Shown in pieces: positions 5,582-25,754 of a stretch of DNA of 64,000 bases. Position 1 is the first letter of the stretch. Each line of letters starts with the position of its first letter. The notes under the pieces are model-generated. The model saw nothing but the letters and a program-made list of their open reading frames with translations, made no database searches and had not been told where the DNA came from. This DNA comes from Escherichia coli (lineage in GTDB: Bacteria; Pseudomonadota; Gammaproteobacteria; Enterobacterales; Enterobacteriaceae). Both the position numbers and the translations under genes were made by a program. Where the stretch lies: the NCBI RefSeq assembly GCF_044324875.1, contig NZ_CP172185.1. The stretch is one strand, 5' to 3'.

Positions 5582-7495
5582 TTACTTACGACCTGCCAGC
5601 AGTTCCAGCACTTCATCCACGCTGGTGGTGTGTGCCAGACGCTCGATGACAGACTCATCATCCAGTGCATTGGTCAGGCTGGTGATAACCTGAATGTGCT
5701 CGTTGTTACGGGCAGCAATACCAATCACCAGACGGGCAATGTCATCTTCTTCTTCACCGAAGCGCACGCCTTCCGGGTACTGGCAGAACACCACGCCCGT
5801 TTTCAGTACGCGATCTTTCGCTTCAACCGTACCGTGCGGTACCGCGATGGACTCACCCAGATAAGTCGGGGTCAGTTTTTCACGATCCAGCATCGCCTGA
5901 ACGTATTCCGGCTCAACGTAACCGCCTTTCACCAGCTGCTCGCCAGCAAAACGAATCGCTTCTTCTTTGGTGGCCGCTTTGCGACCGAGGAAGATGTTCT
6001 CCGCGCCCAGTTTGAACAGGTTAGCACTGGAATCGTCAAAGCTGTCTTTCAGACTGTCTTTCACTTTCACTTCGTTTTCAGTATGGCGCTGGGCAGCAAC
6101 CAGACGTTCGGTCAGGCTGGTGTACAGGCCGCTGTCGAGGAAGTTGGTCAGCGAAATATGCTGTGCCTGCGGAACCTGGCGCATAGCGCGTTCGGTCAGG
6201 TCACGGTGAGTGATGACCAGGTCCACATCTGGCGGCAGGTTGTTGATCGCGCTGTTAGTAACAGAAATCTGCGACAGACCTGCATCCTGAATTTTCTTAC
6301 GCAGCACACCTGCGCCCATCGCACTGGAACCCATACCGGCATCACAGGCAACGATGATTTTACGTACGTGGCTCAGGTCGTTAGTCACATCGCCCGCAGA
6401 CAGCGGGGACGCACCTTTAGACTCAGCTTTCATGTCCTGCATACGACGAGTTGCTGCTTCAATATCATCTTCTTCTTTCACTTTGCTGGTTTTCAGCAGA
6501 ATGGCAGAGACAACGAAGGAGACAGCCATCGCCGCACACACACCCGCGATGTTAGCGAAATAAGCACCTTTTGGTGTCATCGCCAGTACAGCAAGGATAG
6601 AACCCGGAGATGCCGGAGAAACCAGACCACCGCCCAGGATAGTCAGCGTGAACACGCCAGTCATACCACCGAGGATAACGGCCAGAATCAGACGCGGATT
6701 CATCAGCACATACGGGAAGTAGATTTCGTGGATACCGCCCAGGAAGTGGATGATTGCCGCACCGCCCGCAGACTGTTTAGCGCTACCACGACCAAAGAAC
6801 ATGTACGCCAGCAGCACGCCCATACCCGGACCTGGGTTAGCTTCAATCAGGAAGAAGATGGATTTACCCAGTTCATGGGACTGCTGAATGCCCAGCGGCG
6901 AGAAGATACCGTGGTTAATGGCGTTGTTGAGGAACAGGATTTTCGCCGGTTCAACAAAGATAGACGCCAGCGGCAGCATGTCATGGACAACCATGAAGTT
7001 AACGCCCGCAGCCAGCATTTTGGACAGGGCTTCAACAATCGGGCCAATGCCGAGGAATGCCAGAATAGCGAGGATCATCCCGATGATGCCTGCGGAGAAG
7101 TTATTCACCAGCATCTCAAAACCGGATTTGATCTTACCGTCTACCCAGCGGTCGAAGTGCTTAATGCACCAGCCACCCAGCGGACCTGCAATCATAGAAC
7201 CGAGGAACATCGGCATGTCTGCGCCGACGATAACGCCCATGGTGGTAATGGCACCGACTACGCCGCCACGTTCGCCGCCTACCAGCTTACCACCGGTATA
7301 ACCGATCAGCAGCGGCAGGAGATAAGTGATCATCGGCCCGACCAGCTTCGCCAGCGTTTCGTTCGGTAACCACCCTGTTGGAATAAATAACGCGGTGATG
7401 ATACCCCACGCGATAAACGCGCCGATATTTGGCATCACCATGTTGCTGAGGAAACGACCAAAGCTTTGCACTTTGATCTTAATATCGGATGACAT
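5582..7495 (-). CDS. mtlA: PTS mannitol-specific EIICBA component
   Basis: 637-aa ORF, MSSDIKIKVQSFGRFLSNMVMPNIGAF..., long membrane domain followed by EIIB and EIIA domains. Confidence 0.95.
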   Translation of the reverse strand: MSSDIKIKVQSFGRFLSNMVMPNIGAFIAWGIITALFIPTGWLPNETLAKLVGPMITYLLPLLIGYTGGKLVGGERGGVVGAITTMGVIVGADMPMFLGSMIAGPLGGWCIKHFDRWVDGKIKSGFEMLVNNFSAGIIGMILAILAFLGIGPIVEALSKMLAAGVNFMVVHDMLPLASIFVEPAKILFLNNAINHGIFSPLGIQQSHELGKSIFFLIEANPGPGMGVLLAYMFFGRGSAKQSAGGAAIIHFLGGIHEIYFPYVLMNPRLILAVILGGMTGVFTLTILGGGLVSPASPGSILAVLAMTPKGAYFANIAGVCAAMAVSFVVSAILLKTSKVKEEDDIEAATRRMQDMKAESKGASPLSAGDVTNDLSHVRKIIVACDAGMGSSAMGAGVLRKKIQDAGLSQISVTNSAINNLPPDVDLVITHRDLTERAMRQVPQAQHISLTNFLDSGLYTSLTERLVAAQRHTENEVKVKDSLKDSFDDSSANLFKLGAENIFLGRKAATKEEAIRFAGEQLVKGGYVEPEYVQAMLDREKLTPTYLGESIAVPHGTVEAKDRVLKTGVVFCQYPEGVRFGEEEDDIARLVIGIAARNNEHIQVITSLTNALDDESVIERLAHTTSVDEVLELLAGRK

Positions 7496-7638: not shown

Positions 7639-7815
7639 TGTGATATCGGTCACATAAATATAGGGGGTAGAGAGGTAATTGACGTGATGCTCATCACAAA
7701 ACTATTGTGTAAAAAAGCAACAAGGCGGCGATTTTCGCTAAAAATGGCATTTAAATGTGAGTAATGTCACATTTTTGTTTTGTTGGTTTGTTGAATCTTT
7801 GTGATCTGAATCACA
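7639..7815. promoter_or_regulatory. mtlA upstream control region with an array of CRP-type sites
   Basis: TGTGA-N6-TCACA matches at 7639-7654 (tgtgatatcggtcaca), 7683-7698 (cgtgatgctcatcaca), 7756-7771 (tgtgagtaatgtcaca), 7800-7815 (tgtgatctgaatcaca), plus a half-site at 7843-7847. Confidence 0.6.
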
Positions 7816-8396: not shown

Positions 8397-9533
8397 ATGG
8401 ATCTATTGATTGTTTTAACTTACGTGGCGCTGGCGTGGGCGGTCTTTAAAATCTTCCGCATTCCGGTGAATCAGTGGACGCTGGCGACGGCGGCGCTGGG
8501 AGGCGTGTTTCTGGTGAGTGGTTTGATTTTGTTGATGAACTACAACCACCCTTACACTTTTACCGCGCAAAAGGCAGTGATAGCGATCCCCATCACGCCA
8601 CAGGTGACGGGAATTGTTACTGAAGTCACCGACAAAAATAATCAGCTTATTCAGAAGGGCGAGGTGCTTTTTAAGCTCGACCCGGTTCGTTACCAGGCGC
8701 GAGTTGACAGACTTCAGGCTGACCTGATGACGGCGACGCATAATATAAAGACGCTGCGCGCGCAGCTCACTGAAGCGCAGGCCAACACCACCCAGGTTTC
8801 AGCGGAGCGCGACCGTCTGTTTAAAAATTATCAACGTTACCTGAAAGGCAGCCAGGCGGCGGTGAATCCGTTCTCGGAACGTGACATCGACGATGCGCGG
8901 CAAAACTTCCTCGCGCAGGACGCGCTGGTGAAAGGCTCGGTGGCGGAGCAGGCGCAGATCCAGAGCCAGCTCGACAGTATGGTTAACGGCGAGCAATCGC
9001 AGATTGTGAGCTTAAGAGCGCAACTTACTGAAGCAAAATATAACCTTGAGCAGACTGTCATTCGCGCACCAAGCAATGGCTACGTTACTCAGGTACTGAT
9101 CCGCCCAGGTACATACGCAGCTGCCTTGCCGCTACGTCCGGTGATGGTTTTCATCCCCGAGCAAAAACGGCAAATTGTCGCCCAATTTCGGCAGAACTCG
9201 CTGTTACGTCTGAAACCCGGCGATGATGCGGAAGTGGTGTTTAACGCGCTACCTGGGCAGGTGTTCCACGGCAAACTGACCAGTATTTTACCTGTCGTGC
9301 CAGGCGGTTCGTATCAGGCGCAAGGGGTATTGCAATCATTAACGGTCGTGCCCGGCACGGACGGTGTGCTGGGAACCATTGAACTGGACCCCAACGATGA
9401 TATCGATGCCTTACCCGACGGCATCTACGCCCAGGTGGCGGTTTACTCCGACCATTTCAGCCATGTTTCGGTGATGCGAAAAGTGCTGCTAAGAATGACC
9501 AGCTGGATGCATTATCTTTATTTGGATCATTGA
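8397..9533 (+). CDS. yibH: HlyD-family membrane fusion protein (periplasmic adaptor)
   Basis: 378-aa ORF, N-terminal TM segment, long coiled-coil region (RLQADLMTA...), starts 3 bp after yibI; paralog of yiaV. Confidence 0.85.
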
Positions 9534-17503: not shown

Positions 17504-18640
17504 ATGGATTTACTGATTATTTTAACCTATGTGGCTTTCGCATGGGCAATGTTTAAGATCTTCAAAATTCCTGTAAATAAATGGACCATTCCCACAGCGG
17601 CCCTGGGTGGCATATTTATTGTCAGCGGTTTAATTCTGTTAATGAACTATAACCATCCGTATACCTTTAAAGCGCAAAAAGCGGTTATTTCTATTCCTGT
17701 TGTCCCACAGGTGACAGGCGTGGTGATCGAAGTGACGGACAAGAAAAATACGCTGATTAAAAAAGGTGAGGTGCTATTTCGACTGGACCCGACGCGTTAT
17801 CAGGCGCGGGTGGATCGGCTGATGGCGGATATCGTTACCGCAGAACATAAACAGCGGGCGTTGGGCGCAGAGTTAGATGAGATGGCGGCGAATACTCAGC
17901 AGGCAAAGGCCACGCGGGATAAATTCGCTAAAGAGTATCAGCGTTACGCACGCGGCAGTCAGGCGAAAGTAAACCCGTTTTCAGAACGTGATATCGATGT
18001 GGCGCGGCAAAATTATCTGGCACAGGAAGCCTCCGTAAAATCAGCGGCGGCGGAACAAAAACAGATCCTGAGCCAGCTGGATAGCCTGGTGTTGGGTGAA
18101 CATTCTCAAATCGCCAGCCTGAAAGCACAGCTCGCGGAAGCAAAATATAACCTTGAGCAGACGATAGTGCGTGCGCCGAGCGATGGTTATGTGACCCAGG
18201 TACTGATTCGTCCGGGTACCTATGCCGCGTCGCTGCCGCTACGTCCGGTGATGGTGTTTATACCCGATCAGAAACGACAAATCGTGGCGCAGTTCCGTCA
18301 GAACTCCTTGCTGCGACTGGCTCCTGGCGACGATGCGGAAGTGGTGTTTAATGCTCTGCCAGGTAAGGTATTCAGCGGTAAGCTGGCAGCCATTAGTCCA
18401 GCCGTTCCCGGCGGAGCTTATCAGTCGACCGGCACCTTACAGACGTTAAACACAGCGCCGGGTTCAGATGGCGTTATCGCGACCATTGAACTGGATGAGC
18501 ATACTGATTTGAGCGCATTACCAGACGGTATTTACGCCCAGGTGGCGGTCTACTCTGATCATTTCAGCCATGTCTCGGTGATGCGCAAAGTACTGTTACG
18601 CATGACCAGCTGGGTGCATTACCTTTATCTCGATCATTAA
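17504..18640 (+). CDS. yiaV: HlyD-family membrane fusion protein (yibH paralog)
   Basis: 378-aa [23 protein letters not shown]..., same architecture as yibH. Confidence 0.85.
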
Positions 18641-19734: not shown

Positions 19735-20475
19735 ATGTTAATTAACCGCAATATTGTGGCGTTATTTGCGTTGCCTTTTATGGCAAGCGCAACTGCTTCT
19801 GAATTATCCATTGGTGCTGGTGCGGCTTATAATGAATCGCCTTATCGCGGTTATAATGAAAATACAAAGGCAATTCCGCTGATTAGTTATGAAGGTGATA
19901 CTTTTTATGTTCGTCAGACCACGTTAGGTTTTATTCTGTCGCAAAGTGAAAAAAATGAACTTAGCCTGACCGCATCCTGGATGCCGCTGGAATTTGACCC
20001 TGCCGATAATGACGATTATGCCATGCAACAGCTTGATAAGCGTGATAGTACGGCTATGGCGGGGGTTGCCTGGTATCACCACGAGCGTTGGGGAACCGTG
20101 AAAGCCTCTGCGGCTGCGGACGTTCTGGATAACAGCAACGGCTGGGTGGGGGAGCTATCGGTATTCCACAAAATGCAGATAGGTCGCCTGTCGCTGACAC
20201 CTGCGCTGGGCGTTCTCTATTATGACGAGAATTTCAGTGACTATTACTATGGCATTTCAGAGAGTGAGTCCCGTCGTAGCGGTCTGGCAAGTTATTCCGC
20301 GCAGGATGCCTGGGTGCCCTATGTCAGCCTGACGGCAAAATACCCGATAGGAGAGCACGTCGTATTGATGGCGAGCGCAGGATACAGCGAGCTGCCGGAA
20401 GAGATTACCGACAGCCCGATGGTTGATCGTAATGAGAGTTTTACCTTTGTCACTGGCGTGAGCTGGCGTTTTTAA
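19735..20475 (+). CDS. yiaT: Outer-membrane protein, MipA/OmpV family
   Basis: 246-aa ORF with signal peptide and C-terminal ...SWRF beta-barrel terminus. Confidence 0.85.
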   Translation: MLINRNIVALFALPFMASATASELSIGAGAAYNESPYRGYNENTKAIPLISYEGDTFYVRQTTLGFILSQSEKNELSLTASWMPLEFDPADNDDYAMQQLDKRDSTAMAGVAWYHHERWGTVKASAAADVLDNSNGWVGELSVFHKMQIGRLSLTPALGVLYYDENFSDYYYGISESESRRSGLASYSAQDAWVPYVSLTAKYPIGEHVVLMASAGYSELPEEITDSPMVDRNESFTFVTGVSWRF

Positions 20476-20499
20476 TTCACCGGTGGATGTCGGTGCGGC

Positions 20500-20610
20500 T
20501 GGCCTACGCTCTCGCACCGACTTGTAGGCCTGATAAGACGTGTTAAGCGTCGCATCAGGCAATGTGCACCCTACGGTGGATGCGGCGCGAGTGCCTTATC
20601 CAACCTACGG
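20500..20610. repeat. REP-type palindromic elements at the yiaT side of the accessory locus
   Basis: gtaggcctgataagacgtgttaagcgtcgcatcaggc and ggatgcggcgcgagtgccttatcc units. Confidence 0.6.
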
Positions 20611-22575
20611 ATGGCAATGCTTTTCCTCATTCACCCAGATCCGCATTTCGCCTTCACCCCGGTTGGCCCAGCTAAACCACGGGATAAACGTCAGAATTTG
20701 CGGCTGGCGTTTGGCTGGCGCGCTGTCGTAATGCCACAGCGGTTGCTGCTCTGGATTGCTCTGTTCATACCGGTAACCCGGTGCCTGGATTAAGATCTTA
20801 TGGCTGAACAATCCCTTACCTTCAAATGTCGTAAATGGCGCATCGGCGGGCAGCCACAGGTTATGCAGTGACTCGCCGTTGTCGGCCTGTTCCAGGCAAT
20901 ACACCAGCGGGCCGCGCTGAATCGCCACTTTTCCGGCGACGTGACGCACCAGAGGGTTACCGTAAACGCGGCGTACCGGCATCGGCAAAGTCAGATTCAG
21001 CGTATCGCCCTCCTGCCATTCGCGGGTAATGTGCAAATACCCTTTACGAATATCCTGCTCGACCTCTTCCCCATTCAATATGATCTGCGGCTGTGTGCAC
21101 CAGTCCGGCAGACGTAAAGCCAGCGTATGACGCACCGGCTGGGGCGATTCAACCGCAATTGTCACCTGTTCCTGCCACGGATAGTTCCCGCTAACCCGCA
21201 GGCGCAACGTGCCATTTTCTACCGGCACTTCCATGCTGTTTCCTGCGTAGATGTTGATATACAACGCATCTTCACGCGGCGTGTAGAGATAATGACCAAT
21301 CGAGGTCAGTACGCGGGCGATATTTGGCGGACAACAAGCGCAGCCAAACCAACGCTGGCGGAGCGGTTTAACGTGATCGTAGATATGGTTGAATTTCAGC
21401 GATTTTGGATGTACTTCCAGCGGATTCACATAGAAGAAATGTTTGCCATCCAGTGCCATGCCGCCGAGCACAGTGTTGTACAGCGCGCGCTCCATCACAT
21501 CGGCATATTGACTGTCGCCTTCCATTTCCAGCATTCGCCGGGCAAACATCATCAGGCCGATGGAGGCGCAACTTTCAGCGTATACCGTGTCATTCGGCAG
21601 ATCGTAATCGCTGCTGAACGCTTCACCGCTGCTTTGTGAGCCAATGCCGCCGGTAATATATAACTGACGCTGGGCCATATTGTTCCACAGCCGCAGGCAA
21701 TCCTGACGCTTGCTTTCATCGTGACTTAAACGCGCCAGATGTGCGACGCCAGTCATCAGGTAGACAAAGCGTACTGCATGTCCGATGGCGGTTTGTTGCT
21801 GTGCGATGGGCAAATGCGCCTGGCTGTAGGCTTTATCTTTCACCATCCACGCCGGGCCGTAGGTGTGCCAGTGCGAGGTCTGCCCGCGCTTTTCATATTC
21901 CTGGTCGTAATAGTGCGGTTGCGCACCACGCTGTTCGACAAAATAGTTCGTCAGCGCCAGGTAGCGCGGCTCTTCGGTCACTTCATACAGGCGCATTAGT
22001 GCCAGTTCAATTTCCGGGTGACCAGGATAACCGTGTAACTTACTTTCACCTGGACCAAATACGCTGTCGATATGATCGGCCAGACGGCAAACCACTTCCA
22101 GCAAGCGCCGCTTGCCCGTGGCCTGGAAGAAGGCGACTCCGGCTTCAATCAGATGACCGGCGCAGTAAAGTTCATGACACTCCGCCAGATTGCTCCAGCG
22201 TTCTTCGGGCGCTTTTACCGTAAAGTAAGTATTGAGATAGCCATCTTCGCACTGGGCGGAGGCGATCAGTTCAATCACCTCGTCAGCAGTTTTTTCCAGT
22301 TCGGCATCCGGCTTCTGGCACAGCGACCAGGCTACCGCTTCCAGCCATTTGGCGACGTCGCTGTCCTGAAACACCATCCCGTAAAATTCACCGTCTTGCA
22401 GTCCTGCGGCAATGCGAAAGTTTTCAATCGCATGGCTGGGTTCCGCTTCTGGGATACGATCGTTCAAGGCGTCCCACTGATAAGGAATCACCACATCGCG
22501 GACCAGTTGTTGGTACTGACCGAGGAACGGATCGCTGACCGTCAGTTTATGCAGATCGACTTCCGAAATGTTCAT
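20605..22575 (-). CDS. Glycoside hydrolase, GH127-like (DUF1680; beta-L-arabinofuranosidase-type)
   Basis: Track ORF trimmed to ATG 22573-22575, preceded by TAAGGAG SD that overlaps the upstream transporter stop; 656 aa; Cys-rich motif WFGCACCPPN typical of the family. Confidence 0.75.
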   Translation of the reverse strand: MNISEVDLHKLTVSDPFLGQYQQLVRDVVIPYQWDALNDRIPEAEPSHAIENFRIAAGLQDGEFYGMVFQDSDVAKWLEAVAWSLCQKPDAELEKTADEVIELIASAQCEDGYLNTYFTVKAPEERWSNLAECHELYCAGHLIEAGVAFFQATGKRRLLEVVCRLADHIDSVFGPGESKLHGYPGHPEIELALMRLYEVTEEPRYLALTNYFVEQRGAQPHYYDQEYEKRGQTSHWHTYGPAWMVKDKAYSQAHLPIAQQQTAIGHAVRFVYLMTGVAHLARLSHDESKRQDCLRLWNNMAQRQLYITGGIGSQSSGEAFSSDYDLPNDTVYAESCASIGLMMFARRMLEMEGDSQYADVMERALYNTVLGGMALDGKHFFYVNPLEVHPKSLKFNHIYDHVKPLRQRWFGCACCPPNIARVLTSIGHYLYTPREDALYINIYAGNSMEVPVENGTLRLRVSGNYPWQEQVTIAVESPQPVRHTLALRLPDWCTQPQIILNGEEVEQDIRKGYLHITREWQEGDTLNLTLPMPVRRVYGNPLVRHVAGKVAIQRGPLVYCLEQADNGESLHNLWLPADAPFTTFEGKGLFSHKILIQAPGYRYEQSNPEQQPLWHYDSAPAKRQPQILTFIPWFSWANRGEGEMRIWVNEEKHCHP

Positions 22576-22585
22576 CTTGTGCTCC

Positions 22586-23986
22586 TTAAGGCTGTACATG
22601 ACGCTGACGCAGGTCGCTAGCAATGCGTGACATCATAGGGTTATTGAGTTTGCAAAAGCGGATCGCCATCGCCAGCAGCAGGTGGAATAGCGCAGGCAGC
22701 AATGTTTCCATTGCTGTGATCCCGCCAAGCGAACTGGCGGTCTGGTTTTCCACGCCTGGCTGGTAGGCGACAAAAATAAACAGCAGGCTGATGATCCCGG
22801 CGCTGGAGGCCCAGGCCAGCTTGATGAAAAACAGATTGAAGGCGAAGTTCATGCCGGAAGAACGTACGCGGGTTTTCCACTCGCCGTAGTCATCGGCAAA
22901 GGCCATCAATGAGAAGTGCAGTGGCAATGTGAAGCCAAGAATCACGCCATTACCGAGGATCACCGCCAGCCACAGCGTTTGATAAGCCGGGCCAGAGGGC
23001 AGGAACCACATCAACACCGCCAGCGCAGCGAGGAGCAGGTTGGTGTAGTAGTAAATTTTGACGGTATCGAAACGCCGCGTTAATGGGCTGACAATCACCG
23101 AGCCGATAATGGAGGCGAAGGTGACCATGGTGAAGAACAGCGACGTGTAGCCCGTACTGCCTTGTAAGACGTAGGTAATGAAGTACATATACCCACCGCC
23201 GCGAATATTAAAGACGTTAATCAGCAGGAAAGACATGACCAGCATCAGCAGCAGTTGGTCGTTGTTTCGCAGCCCGGCAAGATGTTCGCGCAGGGTAAAT
23301 TTCCCCATTGTGGAGAGTGGTACCCGTTCACGAACCCAGAAGAAACAGCACAGGAACATCACCACAGCGATGGCGCACAGCACGCCGACGCCCAGTTGAT
23401 AGCCGCGCGCGGCATTACCCTGACCGAAGAGATCCACCATCCACGGTAAGCCTACCGAAACCAGAAATCCCGCTACACCGCAGAGAACGAATCGCCAGGA
23501 CTGGCAGGAGATCACTTCATTGTGGCGGGTGGTCATGGTGTTGATCAGCGCGCAGTACGGCACGTTGATGGCGGTATAACCGACTGAAAGGAGCAGGTAA
23601 GTGCCGAACGCCCAGGCGATTTTTACTCCCATGCTGGCATCTGGCACGGTGAACGTCAGGATGCCGATAATGCCGATGGGAATGGCAATCCATAACTGCC
23701 ACGGACGAAAGCGCCCCCAGTGACTTTGCGTCCGGTCGGCAATGACGCCCATCACCGGGTCGGAGATGGCATCAAACACGCGCAGTGCAATAAACAGCGT
23801 GCCGACCAGCGCCGGAGTTAAGCCAAAAACGTCGGTGTAGAAAAAGGTGAGAAAGTTCATGATCAGGCAAGTTATTACGGTGCCGCCTGCGTCACCCAGG
23901 CCGTAGCCTATTTTTTCCCGTACAGATAACGCATCGTCAATTTTACCTTTAGCGATATCAGCGGTAGTAATCGGTGTAGAGGTCAT
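22586..23986 (-). CDS. Glycoside-pentoside-hexuronide (GPH) family cation symporter
   Basis: 466-aa ORF, about 12 TM segments, motifs GYGLGDAG and [14 protein letters not shown]. Confidence 0.85.
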
Positions 23987-24211
23987 AGATATTCCTCGTA
24001 AATAGGGAGCAATTTTTAGTTTTATTGCAATGACCTGATTAATTCTGCCGTGAACGGGAATATCAACAAGGCGAGAAAAGAGTAAAAAAAGGTGACGATT
24101 CCGACCTGAATTTAAAAGTGTGAATTGGATCAGGTGAAATTAATGTTTTTGATTAATAATCAAAAGGTAATGTGTTTGATCATTAATGAATAAGCGGGAA
24201 ATTACATATCA

Positions 24212-25027
24212 ATGCTCGAATTATCCATGACGTTACCGATTAAAGTGCAAAATGGTGGATTATTTATTTCCCGTGGCGTAGGGAGGCATCCGGCAAGGCG
24301 GCTGGAGTCATGGGAAATTATCTTTGTCGAAAAAGGTCGATTAGCGATTCAGGAAGAAGAGCGGATATTTCTGGTCGATGCGGGAGAGAGTTTATTACTC
24401 TGGCCGAACCGACAGCATGTTGGGGTAGAGGATTTTCCCGCCGATCTCAAATTTTACTGGCTGCATTTTGAGGTTAAAGCGCCGGACAACGACCCGCGCT
24501 GGCTCACTCATCTTAGCGTGCCGCAACAAACAAAGGTTGCCGATCGGCAGGCGCTGGTGGCCCTGTTTCGCCAGTTCTTAAGCGAACAGGAAAAGCATCA
24601 ACGCACTCCGGCGCTGGAGTTTATTGTGCTGCTGATTTTGCAGCAACTCACCCGTGACGCGCGTCTTGATGAACAGGCCGATGCCGCAGGTACCACGCTT
24701 GCCTGGAAAGCGCAGAAACTGATCCGCACGCAATATCATCGCCCGCTTTCCACGGCGCTTTTAGCCCGCGAGCTGTACTGCAATGCCGATTATCTTGGGC
24801 GCGTCTACCGGCGGGTGTTTCATCTGACGTTAACAGAAGCAATTCATCGCCAGCGAGTGCGCGAAGCCGAAAAGCTGTTAATTAGCGAAGCGCGATCGCT
24901 CACTGAAGTGGCTGCGTTGTGCGGGTTTAATGACGTTGGCTATTTCCGACAGATTTTTCGCAAACACACCGGTTTAACGCCAGCTGCGTGGAAGCGACGT
25001 TACAGCAAGGAACATATCAATTCGTAG
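24212..25027 (+). CDS. AraC/XylS-family transcriptional regulator (cupin sensor plus HTH)
   Basis: 271-aa ORF divergent from the symporter; C-terminal HTH region (TEVAALCGFNDVGYFRQIFRKHTG). Confidence 0.85.
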   Translation: MLELSMTLPIKVQNGGLFISRGVGRHPARRLESWEIIFVEKGRLAIQEEERIFLVDAGESLLLWPNRQHVGVEDFPADLKFYWLHFEVKAPDNDPRWLTHLSVPQQTKVADRQALVALFRQFLSEQEKHQRTPALEFIVLLILQQLTRDARLDEQADAAGTTLAWKAQKLIRTQYHRPLSTALLARELYCNADYLGRVYRRVFHLTLTEAIHRQRVREAEKLLISEARSLTEVAALCGFNDVGYFRQIFRKHTGLTPAAWKRRYSKEHINS

Positions 25028-25058
25028 TGCCGGGGCAATGAAGCCCCGGCGTGAGGGA

Positions 25059-25754
25059 TTACTGCCCGTAATAGGCATTGGCCCCATGCTTACGCAGGTA
25101 GTGCTTATCTAACAGTTCGTTTTGCATCGCAGGGAGCTGCGGCGCAAGCTGACGCGAGAACAGGCCCATATAGGCACACTCTTCCAGCACCACGGCGTTA
25201 TGCACTGCATCGGCGGCATTTTTTCCCCAGGCGAACGGGCCGTGAGAATGTACCAGAACCGCCGGGATTTGCGCTGGACTCCTGCCGCGTTCTTCGAGGG
25301 TTTCAATGATCACTTCGCCAGTCTGGTATTCATACTCGCCGTTGATCTCTTCTGCGGTCATCAGGCGCGTGCAGGGGATGGCTCCATAGAAGTAATCGGC
25401 GTGCGTGGTGCCCCAGGCGGGGAGATCCAGCCCGGCCTGTGACCAGATGGTCGCGTGGCGCGAGTGGGTATGCACAATGCCACCGATTTCGGCATAGCGA
25501 CGGTAGAGCGCCAGATGCGTTGGCGTGTCGGACGAGGGCTTTTTGCTGCCTTCCACCCCCTTACCGCTGGCTATCTCAACCACCACCATATCGTCGGCGG
25601 TCATCACGTCGTACTCGACGCCGGAAGGTTTGATTACCATCCATTGCCGCGTTTCGTCTACCGCGCTGACATTGCCCCAGGTGAACGTCACCAGATGGTG
25701 AGCGGGAAGCGCCAGATTCGCCGCCAGCACGTCGGCTTTCAGTTGCTCTAACAT
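25059..25754 (-). CDS. sgbE: L-ribulose-5-phosphate 4-epimerase
   Basis: 231-aa [33 protein letters not shown]..., class II aldolase/epimerase fold. Confidence 0.95.

Follow-up and report, generated by a model that had tools for sequence, protein, structure and literature searches.

Among the systems known from Escherichia coli, the melAB (MelR-MelB) and yicJI-type operons pair a symporter of the GPH family with a cytoplasmic glycosidase, and the mel pair is controlled by an AraC-family activator together with CRP. In Geobacillus, the gene for Ara127N, an intracellular enzyme of glycoside hydrolase family 127 (GH127), forms part of a large arabinan-utilisation cluster. A further arrangement has been described in Bifidobacterium longum, where extracellular HypBA2 frees Araf-beta1,2-Araf (Araf, arabinofuranose), a dedicated importer brings this disaccharide into the cell and HypBA1, located inside, cleaves it to two molecules of L-arabinose (PMC7263609). 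Here, a three-gene locus that shares features with each of these systems is described in a 64-kb stretch of E. coli DNA from contig NZ_CP172185.1 (the window, whose coordinates are used throughout). The locus lies between yiaT (19735-20475), which flanks its hydrolase side, and sgbE (25059-25754), which flanks its regulator side. It comprises the genes for a GH127 hydrolase (20605-22575, minus strand) and a GPH symporter (22586-23986, minus strand) and, in divergent orientation, the gene for an AraC-type regulator (24212-25027, plus strand). The open reading frames (ORFs) of the window, with their translations, were checked against a first-pass annotation of the same DNA; the three ORFs stand at exactly the positions which that annotation had given, and its strands, gene identities and divergent layout hold up as well, the profile matches behind the family assignments being far stronger than chance would give. 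Considered as a whole, the evidence makes it fairly probable that this is an operon under AraC-type activation and catabolite control whose products take up small beta-L-arabinofuranosides and split off L-arabinose in the cytoplasm.

Like the B. longum system, the locus encodes a GH127 enzyme that is predicted to be intracellular and exo-acting and shares its catalytic Glu/Cys and Zn(Cys3Glu) residues with HypBA1, and has an importer gene beside the GH127 gene, consistent with import first and cleavage to L-arabinose afterwards. Unlike that system, its importer is a single GPH cation symporter and not an ATP-binding cassette (ABC) transporter, it includes an AraC-type regulator, and it lacks both the GH121 enzyme HypBA2 and the GH43 enzyme HypAA. 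The pairing of a GPH symporter with a cytoplasmic glycosidase is that of the melAB and yicJI-type operons, from which the locus differs in placing the transporter before the hydrolase, in using a GH127 cysteine glycosidase and in its predicted substrate. Enzymes of this family, import followed by cleavage and a regulatory layout of this type are all familiar from known systems, and the present description is incremental in scope.

The GH127 hydrolase

The hydrolase, a protein of 656 amino acids, carries all three Pfam domains of GH127, namely PF07944 (1.4e-111), the middle domain PF20736 (1.3e-23) and the C-terminal domain PF20737 (4.2e-25), and this strong profile match upholds the family assignment made in the first-pass annotation. 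Its best relative of solved structure is the Geobacillus GH127 beta-L-arabinofuranosidase 4QJY (E 1.3e-235, 787 bits), which aligns with hydrolase residues 11-650 at an identity of roughly 60% over the full length, as estimated by eye. This relative is Ara127N of Geobacillus stearothermophilus T6 (4QJY/4QK0), as it is named in the PDB entry and in the citation that PMC7889515 gives for it. Both proteins have the same three-domain architecture and are assigned to the cell interior, whereas Ara127N comes from a Gram-positive thermophile and the E. coli gene belongs to a minimal three-gene module. The next match, also over the full length, is Bifidobacterium HypBA1 (3WKW; E 4e-152, 511 bits), from which the hydrolase is therefore more distant than from Ara127N, and 6EX6 (391 bits) and 5MQO follow as weaker, partial matches.

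Residues E322, E338, C340, C417 and C418 of HypBA1 align with E318, E334, C336, C414 and C415 of the hydrolase. In HypBA1, E322 is the acid/base and C417 the nucleophile, and E338, C340, C417 and C418 are the zinc ligands. All the catalytic and zinc residues are thus kept, as confirmed in the translation, where they fall in the motifs GEAF, AESCAS and FGCACCPP. The hydrolase sequence contains no signal peptide, transmembrane segment or hydrophobic N-terminus, which places the protein in the cytoplasm. Regarding its start, an alternative TTG-initiated reading (to 22623) would overlap the symporter gene; the Shine-Dalgarno sequence, the RefSeq annotations and the orthologue alignments favour instead the ATG at 22575. 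A retaining beta-L-arabinofuranosidase (EC 3.2.1.185), predicted to act as an exo-enzyme, is suggested by how closely the protein matches 4QJY over its full length, and the earlier guess that the substrate could be a beta-L-arabinofuranoside gains weight from this close match and from the conserved catalytic residues.

The symporter and its junction with the hydrolase gene

The first gene of the operon encodes a MelB-like glycoside:cation symporter of 466 amino acids. It scores 330.8 bits with the GPH model TIGR00792 (cutoff 231.35), covering model positions 1-437 of 437, matches the Pfam family MFS_2 (3.4e-73) and can be aligned along its whole length with MelB structures (4M64, E 1.4e-37). 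The protein shows about 12 hydrophobic segments and the helix-II motif DAISDP.

On the minus strand, the junction between the two genes reads ...CAGCCTTAAGGAGCACAAGATG. As the first-pass annotation had pointed out, the stop codon of the symporter gene lies within the Shine-Dalgarno sequence of the hydrolase gene: the TAA at 22588-22586 constitutes the first three bases of TAAGGAG (22582-22588, minus strand), which is followed after 6 bases by the hydrolase ATG (22575-22573), leaving a gap of 10 nt from stop to start. The arrangement of TAAGGAG or TGAGGAG, 6 nt and ATG is found in almost every orthologous enterobacterial locus (about 60 species), and the overlap is kept across orthologues although the symporter stop itself alternates between TAA and TGA. 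Such a layout would be expected of a two-gene operon with tight coupling, and translation of the hydrolase may be coupled to that of the symporter.

The regulator and the divergent control region

The regulator is an AraC/XylS-family protein of 271 amino acids with an N-terminal cupin and a C-terminal double helix-turn-helix (HTH). Its HTH_18 domain (4e-19) covers residues 184-263, and the AraC_binding domain (1.6e-08, residues 26-132) is the cupin ligand-binding domain of the sugar-responsive subgroup. The best NCBIfam match of the regulator is AraC itself, at 61.8 bits and under the cutoff of 208, and the NCBIfam scores rule out that it is AraC, RhaS/R or MelR.

The 225 bp between the divergent genes (23987-24211) were footprinted by aligning this region from 70 non-redundant enterobacterial loci. 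Read in the direction of the symporter gene, islands conserved in at least 90% of the sequences stand out amid freely varying DNA. The most upstream of the elements considered here is a CRP-like site, CCTGATCCAATTCACA (24119-24134, minus strand), recognised from columns conserved in the 70 sequences; its cross-genus consensus, GATC-N4-TCACA-N-TTT, has the spacing of the CRP consensus and a perfect right half. A 32-bp box with columns conserved at 90% or more, AgGTCGGAATcgTCa.CTTTTTaTACTTtT (24076-24107, minus strand), is bordered on either side by unconserved DNA and constitutes a candidate binding site for the AraC-type activator; no obvious repeat was detected between its half-sites. A further conserved island, CCTTGTTG, includes the -35-like hexamer TTGTTG (24069-24064), and 16 nt beyond it a conserved GCAgAAT supplies the -10-like CAGAAT (24047-24042). 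The cross-genus conservation of these hexamers suggests a symporter promoter at 24042-24069 (minus strand) with transcription starting near 24035. Relative to this predicted start, the CRP-like site would be centred at about -91.5 and the 32-bp box would span about -72 to -41. The GAGGA Shine-Dalgarno sequence ahead of the symporter ATG is conserved as well.

At araBAD and rhaBAD, where an AraC-family activator acts with CRP at a class I position, the CRP site, the activator box and the -35/-10 hexamers are arranged in the same manner. The present locus resembles those operons in its divergent regulator gene, in the cupin-bearing AraC-family activator, in the conserved box that abuts the -35 and in the CRP-like site about 92 bp upstream of the start, here predicted from the sequence alone; it departs from them in that the half-sites are not obviously repeated and the left half of the CRP-like site is weak. 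The conserved elements have the spacing of an araBAD-like promoter, and CRP and the activator may bind at this region, although the CRP match taken by itself is at chance level. An AT-rich 23-nt direct repeat with a palindrome near the regulator start (24141-24193) was also considered as the activator site and found no support, as it is not conserved across genera; TGATTATT (24160-24153) is its only part conserved between genera. An Rfam search of the locus detected neither a riboswitch nor a small RNA in the control region.

In Klebsiella, Citrobacter youngae, Pantoea and Phytobacter, a hairpin of the form CCCGC...GCGGG, absent in E. coli, is inserted in the symporter leader (columns after 24010), and it could represent either an insertion related to repetitive extragenic palindromic (REP) elements or an attenuator.

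Ancestry of the locus

Orthologues were sought in one genome per species, and the best 80 hits were analysed. Among the matches listed, orthologues 72-97% identical occur in about 75 species of Enterobacterales. Wherever the contig is long enough, the Enterobacterales loci (about 70 species) have all three genes intact, with the symporter and AraC-type genes adjacent in unchanged orientation. The order sgbU-sgbE-[AraC, GPH, GH127]-yiaT-yiaU is common to Citrobacter, Enterobacter, Lelliottia, Pseudocitrobacter and Huaxiibacter. In the window, the sgbE-sgbU-sgbH-lyxK-yiaO operon begins at 25059, beyond the regulator gene.

This synteny across genera, together with gene fragments that persist in K-12, indicates that the three genes are ancestral at the yiaT-sgbE position and that the K-12 arrangement is derived. 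The first-pass annotation had taken yiaT and sgbE to be adjacent in K-12, and this is not strictly so: MG1655 has two annotated pseudogenes between them, ysaC (b4648), which is the 3' end of the AraC-type gene, and ysaD (b4649), which derives from the interior of the GH127 gene. When the yiaT-sgbE interval of K-12 is aligned to the window by blastn, the retained parts are 20404-20502 (the end of yiaT), 20713-20902 (ysaD, 90.5% identical) and 24924-25140, the last of which consists of the final ~100 nt of the regulator gene (ysaC, 24924-25027) and sgbE. The major deletion thus removed 4021 bp (20903-24923), as is also apparent from the K-12 annotation, and a second one removed 20503-20712. The description of the locus as an accessory cassette is therefore right in the pangenome sense, given that its presence varies among strains, and wrong if it is taken to mean an acquired insertion.

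Some orthologous loci depart from this picture. In Escherichia whittamii, sgbU lies directly beside the AraC-type gene (locus L004, 4657-5552, and L003), without a match to sgbE and with no yiaT nearby. For E. albertii, E. fergusonii and E. marmotae, the representative genomes do not rank within the best 80 hits, pointing to additional losses of the cassette in the genus. In Salmonella enterica NZ_CP026327.1 (213058-216948), aldB, the GH127 gene, the AraC-type gene and araD follow one another, with 264 bp between GH127 and AraC (PMC13304739, supplement). This distance implies that the symporter gene is missing there, while S. diarizonae (L028), unlike that strain, has it. Several Bradyrhizobium species (L073-L077 and L080) carry a GH127 protein that shares 72% identity with the E. 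coli hydrolase, with no GPH or AraC neighbours and beside a PAS sensor kinase and a peptidase; such an identity between an alpha- and a gamma-proteobacterium is unusually high and suggests lateral transfer of the GH127 gene.

Distribution within E. coli

The strain variability anticipated for the locus is evident in complete E. coli genomes. At least 80% of the cassette is present in 2313 of 5426 (~43%), always on the chromosome, and another 2456 (~45%) match only about 325 bp at ~92% identity, which is the K-12 state; consistent with this, K-12 itself has no intact copy of the genes. Further states were revealed by a query spanning yiaT to sgbE. O157:H7 has kept the cassette and lost yiaJ through sgbE. 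In R13, AR_0055 and GN03590, aldB stands directly beside the hydrolase gene and yiaW through yiaT are lost, and in another group of E. coli a hicAB toxin-antitoxin pair takes the place of yiaT. In Nissle 1917 and about 480 other genomes, aldB is directly beside sgbE and nothing of the cassette is left. Given these different deletion states, the yiaT-sgbE region can be regarded as a deletion hotspot. The ysaC-ysaD interval has already served for chromosomal integration as a neutral site (PMC12361893).

Several details of these alleles were observed in passing. In O157:H7 OK1 (L085, 9295-9435), the AraC-type gene is bordered by a C-terminal remnant of the IclR-type gene yiaJ, and ysaA and avtA come next. 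The hicA/hicB genes adjoin the hydrolase gene at the yiaT-yiaW position in WP8-S17-ESBL-12 (L088, 806-1418) and MSB1_8B (L089, 859-1471); beyond them, the latter strain has a type I restriction gene. A gene for a Fic-family protein is located between yiaY and aldB in Nissle 1917 (L083) and R13 (L084).

Selection and expression

Where they are retained, all three genes are under strong purifying selection. Pairwise comparison of the window alleles with those of O157, R13 and MSB1_8B (synonymous divergence, dS, 0.04-0.14) yields ratios of nonsynonymous to synonymous divergence (dN/dS) of 0.04-0.08 for the three genes, similar to that of the neighbouring sgbE, and of 0.04-0.05 for the hydrolase within E. 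coli. In R13, AR_0055 and GN03590, the hydrolase gene is labelled 'frameshifted' by the Prokaryotic Genome Annotation Pipeline (PGAP). It is nevertheless not a pseudogene: a 1-nt deletion near codon 651 alters only the last five residues, turning the end EKHCHP into ETSAIRR beyond the Pfam domains, and the ORF extends to 657 amino acids.

As for expression, the GH127 gene rises 4-5 fold together with lacZ under non-glucose conditions in an E. coli transcriptome (PMC6561948), and in the Salmonella strain that lacks the symporter its orthologue is still expressed, responding to lactulose with a log fold change of 3.05, against 5.39 for the adjacent aldB (PMC13304739, supplement). An increase alongside lacZ or aldB in media other than glucose fits with catabolite control. 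The lactulose response was considered as a hint to the substrate and set aside as non-specific, since aldB and a ROK-family gene rise more, a pattern compatible with general catabolite derepression.

Proposed function and alternative explanations

According to the mechanism proposed here, the AraC-type protein would sense a sugar ligand and, together with CRP bound to cyclic AMP (cAMP-CRP), would activate the promoter upstream of the symporter gene. This promoter would drive a two-gene operon, symporter followed by GH127 hydrolase, linked in translation by the stop-in-Shine-Dalgarno junction. The symporter would move a small beta-L-arabinofuranoside from the periplasm to the cytoplasm in a cation-coupled manner. 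There, the GH127 enzyme, a predicted retaining cysteine glycosidase with a Zn(Cys3Glu) site, would free L-arabinose to feed the araBAD pathway. The most likely substrate would be Araf-beta1,2-Araf or another short beta-L-arabino-oligosaccharide, originating from plant hydroxyproline-rich glycoproteins, arabinogalactan proteins or pectin. According to the ORF listing and the neighbourhoods, no extracellular partner enzymes are encoded in or near the locus, nor is E. coli known to secrete an enzyme that could free such oligosaccharides, and for this reason the substrate would come from other microbes or from plant turnover; E. coli would then scavenge fragments freed by other gut or plant-associated microbes, for example through the HypBA2 of Bifidobacterium. 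Import and cleavage of beta-L-arabinofuranosides as such are rather likely, and less confidence attaches to the particular disaccharide.

Several observations weigh against this proposal. The literature on GH127, DUF1680, beta-L-arabinofuranosidase and ysaC/ysaD yielded no biochemical or genetic test of this protein or of its enterobacterial orthologues. As the first-pass annotation had supposed for E. coli, the literature searched holds no functional study in this species or in other Enterobacteriaceae, and the gene is mentioned only for an association with invasiveness (PMC11879602) and in expression lists, while thousands of RefSeq genomes already carry the machine annotations 'glycoside hydrolase family 127 protein', 'MFS transporter' and 'AraC family transcriptional regulator'. 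Regarding the promoter, the CRP-like site has two mismatches to TGTGA-N6-TCACA, leaving its left half weak, and matches of this quality occur in the window at chance frequency (33 found, 25 expected). A generic sigma-70 scan flagged nothing in the divergent intergenic region, as expected for activator-dependent promoters. The Salmonella strain that lacks the symporter raises the point that uptake may not strictly need it, and the repeated loss of the locus in E. coli shows that its function is dispensable in many niches. The remaining objections concern the substrate. The same architecture of import and cytoplasmic GH127 cleavage could serve a different furanoside, or else an aryl glycoside or one of plant secondary metabolites, in which case the enterobacterial clade would have a different or so far undescribed GH127 specificity. 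GH127 is indeed a poly-specific family; the only NCBIfam match of the hydrolase is the aceric-acid-hydrolase model NF049879 (455.7 bits, in two partial stretches), next to the partial matches to 6EX6 and 5MQO. The symporter falls below the cutoff of every characterised GPH equivalog model, so that none of them gives a substrate class (score/cutoff: YagG 355/610, YicJ-type 323/836, MelB 207/456, glucuronide transporter GusB/UidB 192/528). Outside the three genes, the neighbourhoods offer no link to arabinose pathways: in the non-syntenic loci of Pantoea, Enterobacter and Bradyrhizobium the neighbours (sensor kinase, peptidase, diguanylate cyclase, AI-2E transporter and uncharacterised genes) are unrelated and give no clue to the substrate. 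However, a beta-L-arabinofuranosidase of solved structure clearly leads all other matches, at twice the score of 6EX6 (787 against 391 bits), every catalytic and zinc residue is kept, and 455.7 bits is less than half of the curated cutoff of 950, which argues that the protein is not an aceric acid hydrolase. Another substrate is consequently judged unlikely.

Two further explanations concern the standing of the locus and not its chemistry. That the cassette is a decaying and functionally irrelevant relic in a deletion-prone region of E. coli would accord with the existence of four or more deletion states of independent origin (those of K-12, with its scar, of Nissle, of O157 and of the hicAB/aldB junction types), with the ~45% of genomes that keep only the scar, with the 'frameshifted' label in one clone and with the species of Escherichia missing from the top hits. 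Against such decay, the retained ORFs are intact at the low dN/dS given above, the supposed frameshift leaves everything but the last five residues unchanged, the promoter elements show conservation between genera and the transcript is detected and regulated, all of which renders this explanation improbable. The idea of a horizontally acquired island inserted between yiaT and sgbE, prompted by the absence of the genes from K-12 and by the REP elements on one side, can be rejected. Pieces of two of the three genes persist in K-12 at this very position, five other genera have the same gene order, the divergence of the cassette tracks that of the flanking sgbE, its GC content (~54%) is unremarkable and the ORF listing contains no mobility genes at the locus.

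A wider role can be envisaged, although it is doubtful at present: the locus might be a cross-feeding device on beta-L-arabino-oligosaccharides whose presence is a determinant of niche or pathotype, or else it might harbour an undescribed GH127 specificity. The source in the former case would be dietary extensins and arabinogalactan proteins cut by Bifidobacterium or Bacteroides, since E. coli and its relatives are not known to secrete plant-glycan hydrolases. A niche determinant would fit with a pattern in which the locus is kept in O157:H7 and in the lineages with the aldB-GH127 junction and lost in K-12 and Nissle. In a pangenome study, the GH127 protein co-segregates with the epithelial invasiveness of isolates from inflammatory bowel disease (adherent-invasive E. 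coli; PMC11879602). Should either possibility be true, no GPH-family transporter before this one would have been assigned to beta-L-arabinofuranosides. If the main prediction of import and cleavage holds, E. coli strains would differ simply in whether they can use the beta-L-arabinofuranosides of dietary plant glycoproteins: about 43% of sequenced strains could, K-12 not among them. The K-12 pseudogenes ysaC and ysaD would then be explained, and an uncharacterised GPH subfamily would gain a substrate class. Confirmation of the prediction would also connect E. coli by cross-feeding with Bifidobacterium or Bacteroides and provide a mechanistic handle on a gene that co-segregates with invasiveness in those isolates (PMC11879602).

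Flanking elements and other features of the window

The REP cluster reported earlier at the yiaT-side junction is confirmed by a consensus match and a hairpin. A pair of REP elements, similar to a bacterial interspersed mosaic element (BIME), lies between yiaT and the hydrolase stop codon (20527-20605). Positions 20532-20556 match the REP consensus exactly, and 20528-20560 can form a hairpin; the second element contains the stop codon. The REP-derived Rfam family naRNA4 scores 57.3 bits over 20527-20605, just short of its gathering score of 59.5, and the rest of the Rfam search of the locus returned only sub-threshold noise.

Elsewhere in the window, two very similar paralogous genes for HlyD-family membrane-fusion proteins of 378 amino acids each occur at 8397-9533 (yibH-like, near mtlA) and at 17504-18640 (yiaV, near the locus). 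Just upstream of mtlA (5582-7495, minus strand), four CRP consensus sites are clustered within 180 bp (7639-7815), three of them perfect matches to TGTGA-N6-TCACA and one with a single mismatch, which we take to be the known multi-CRP promoter of the mannitol operon.

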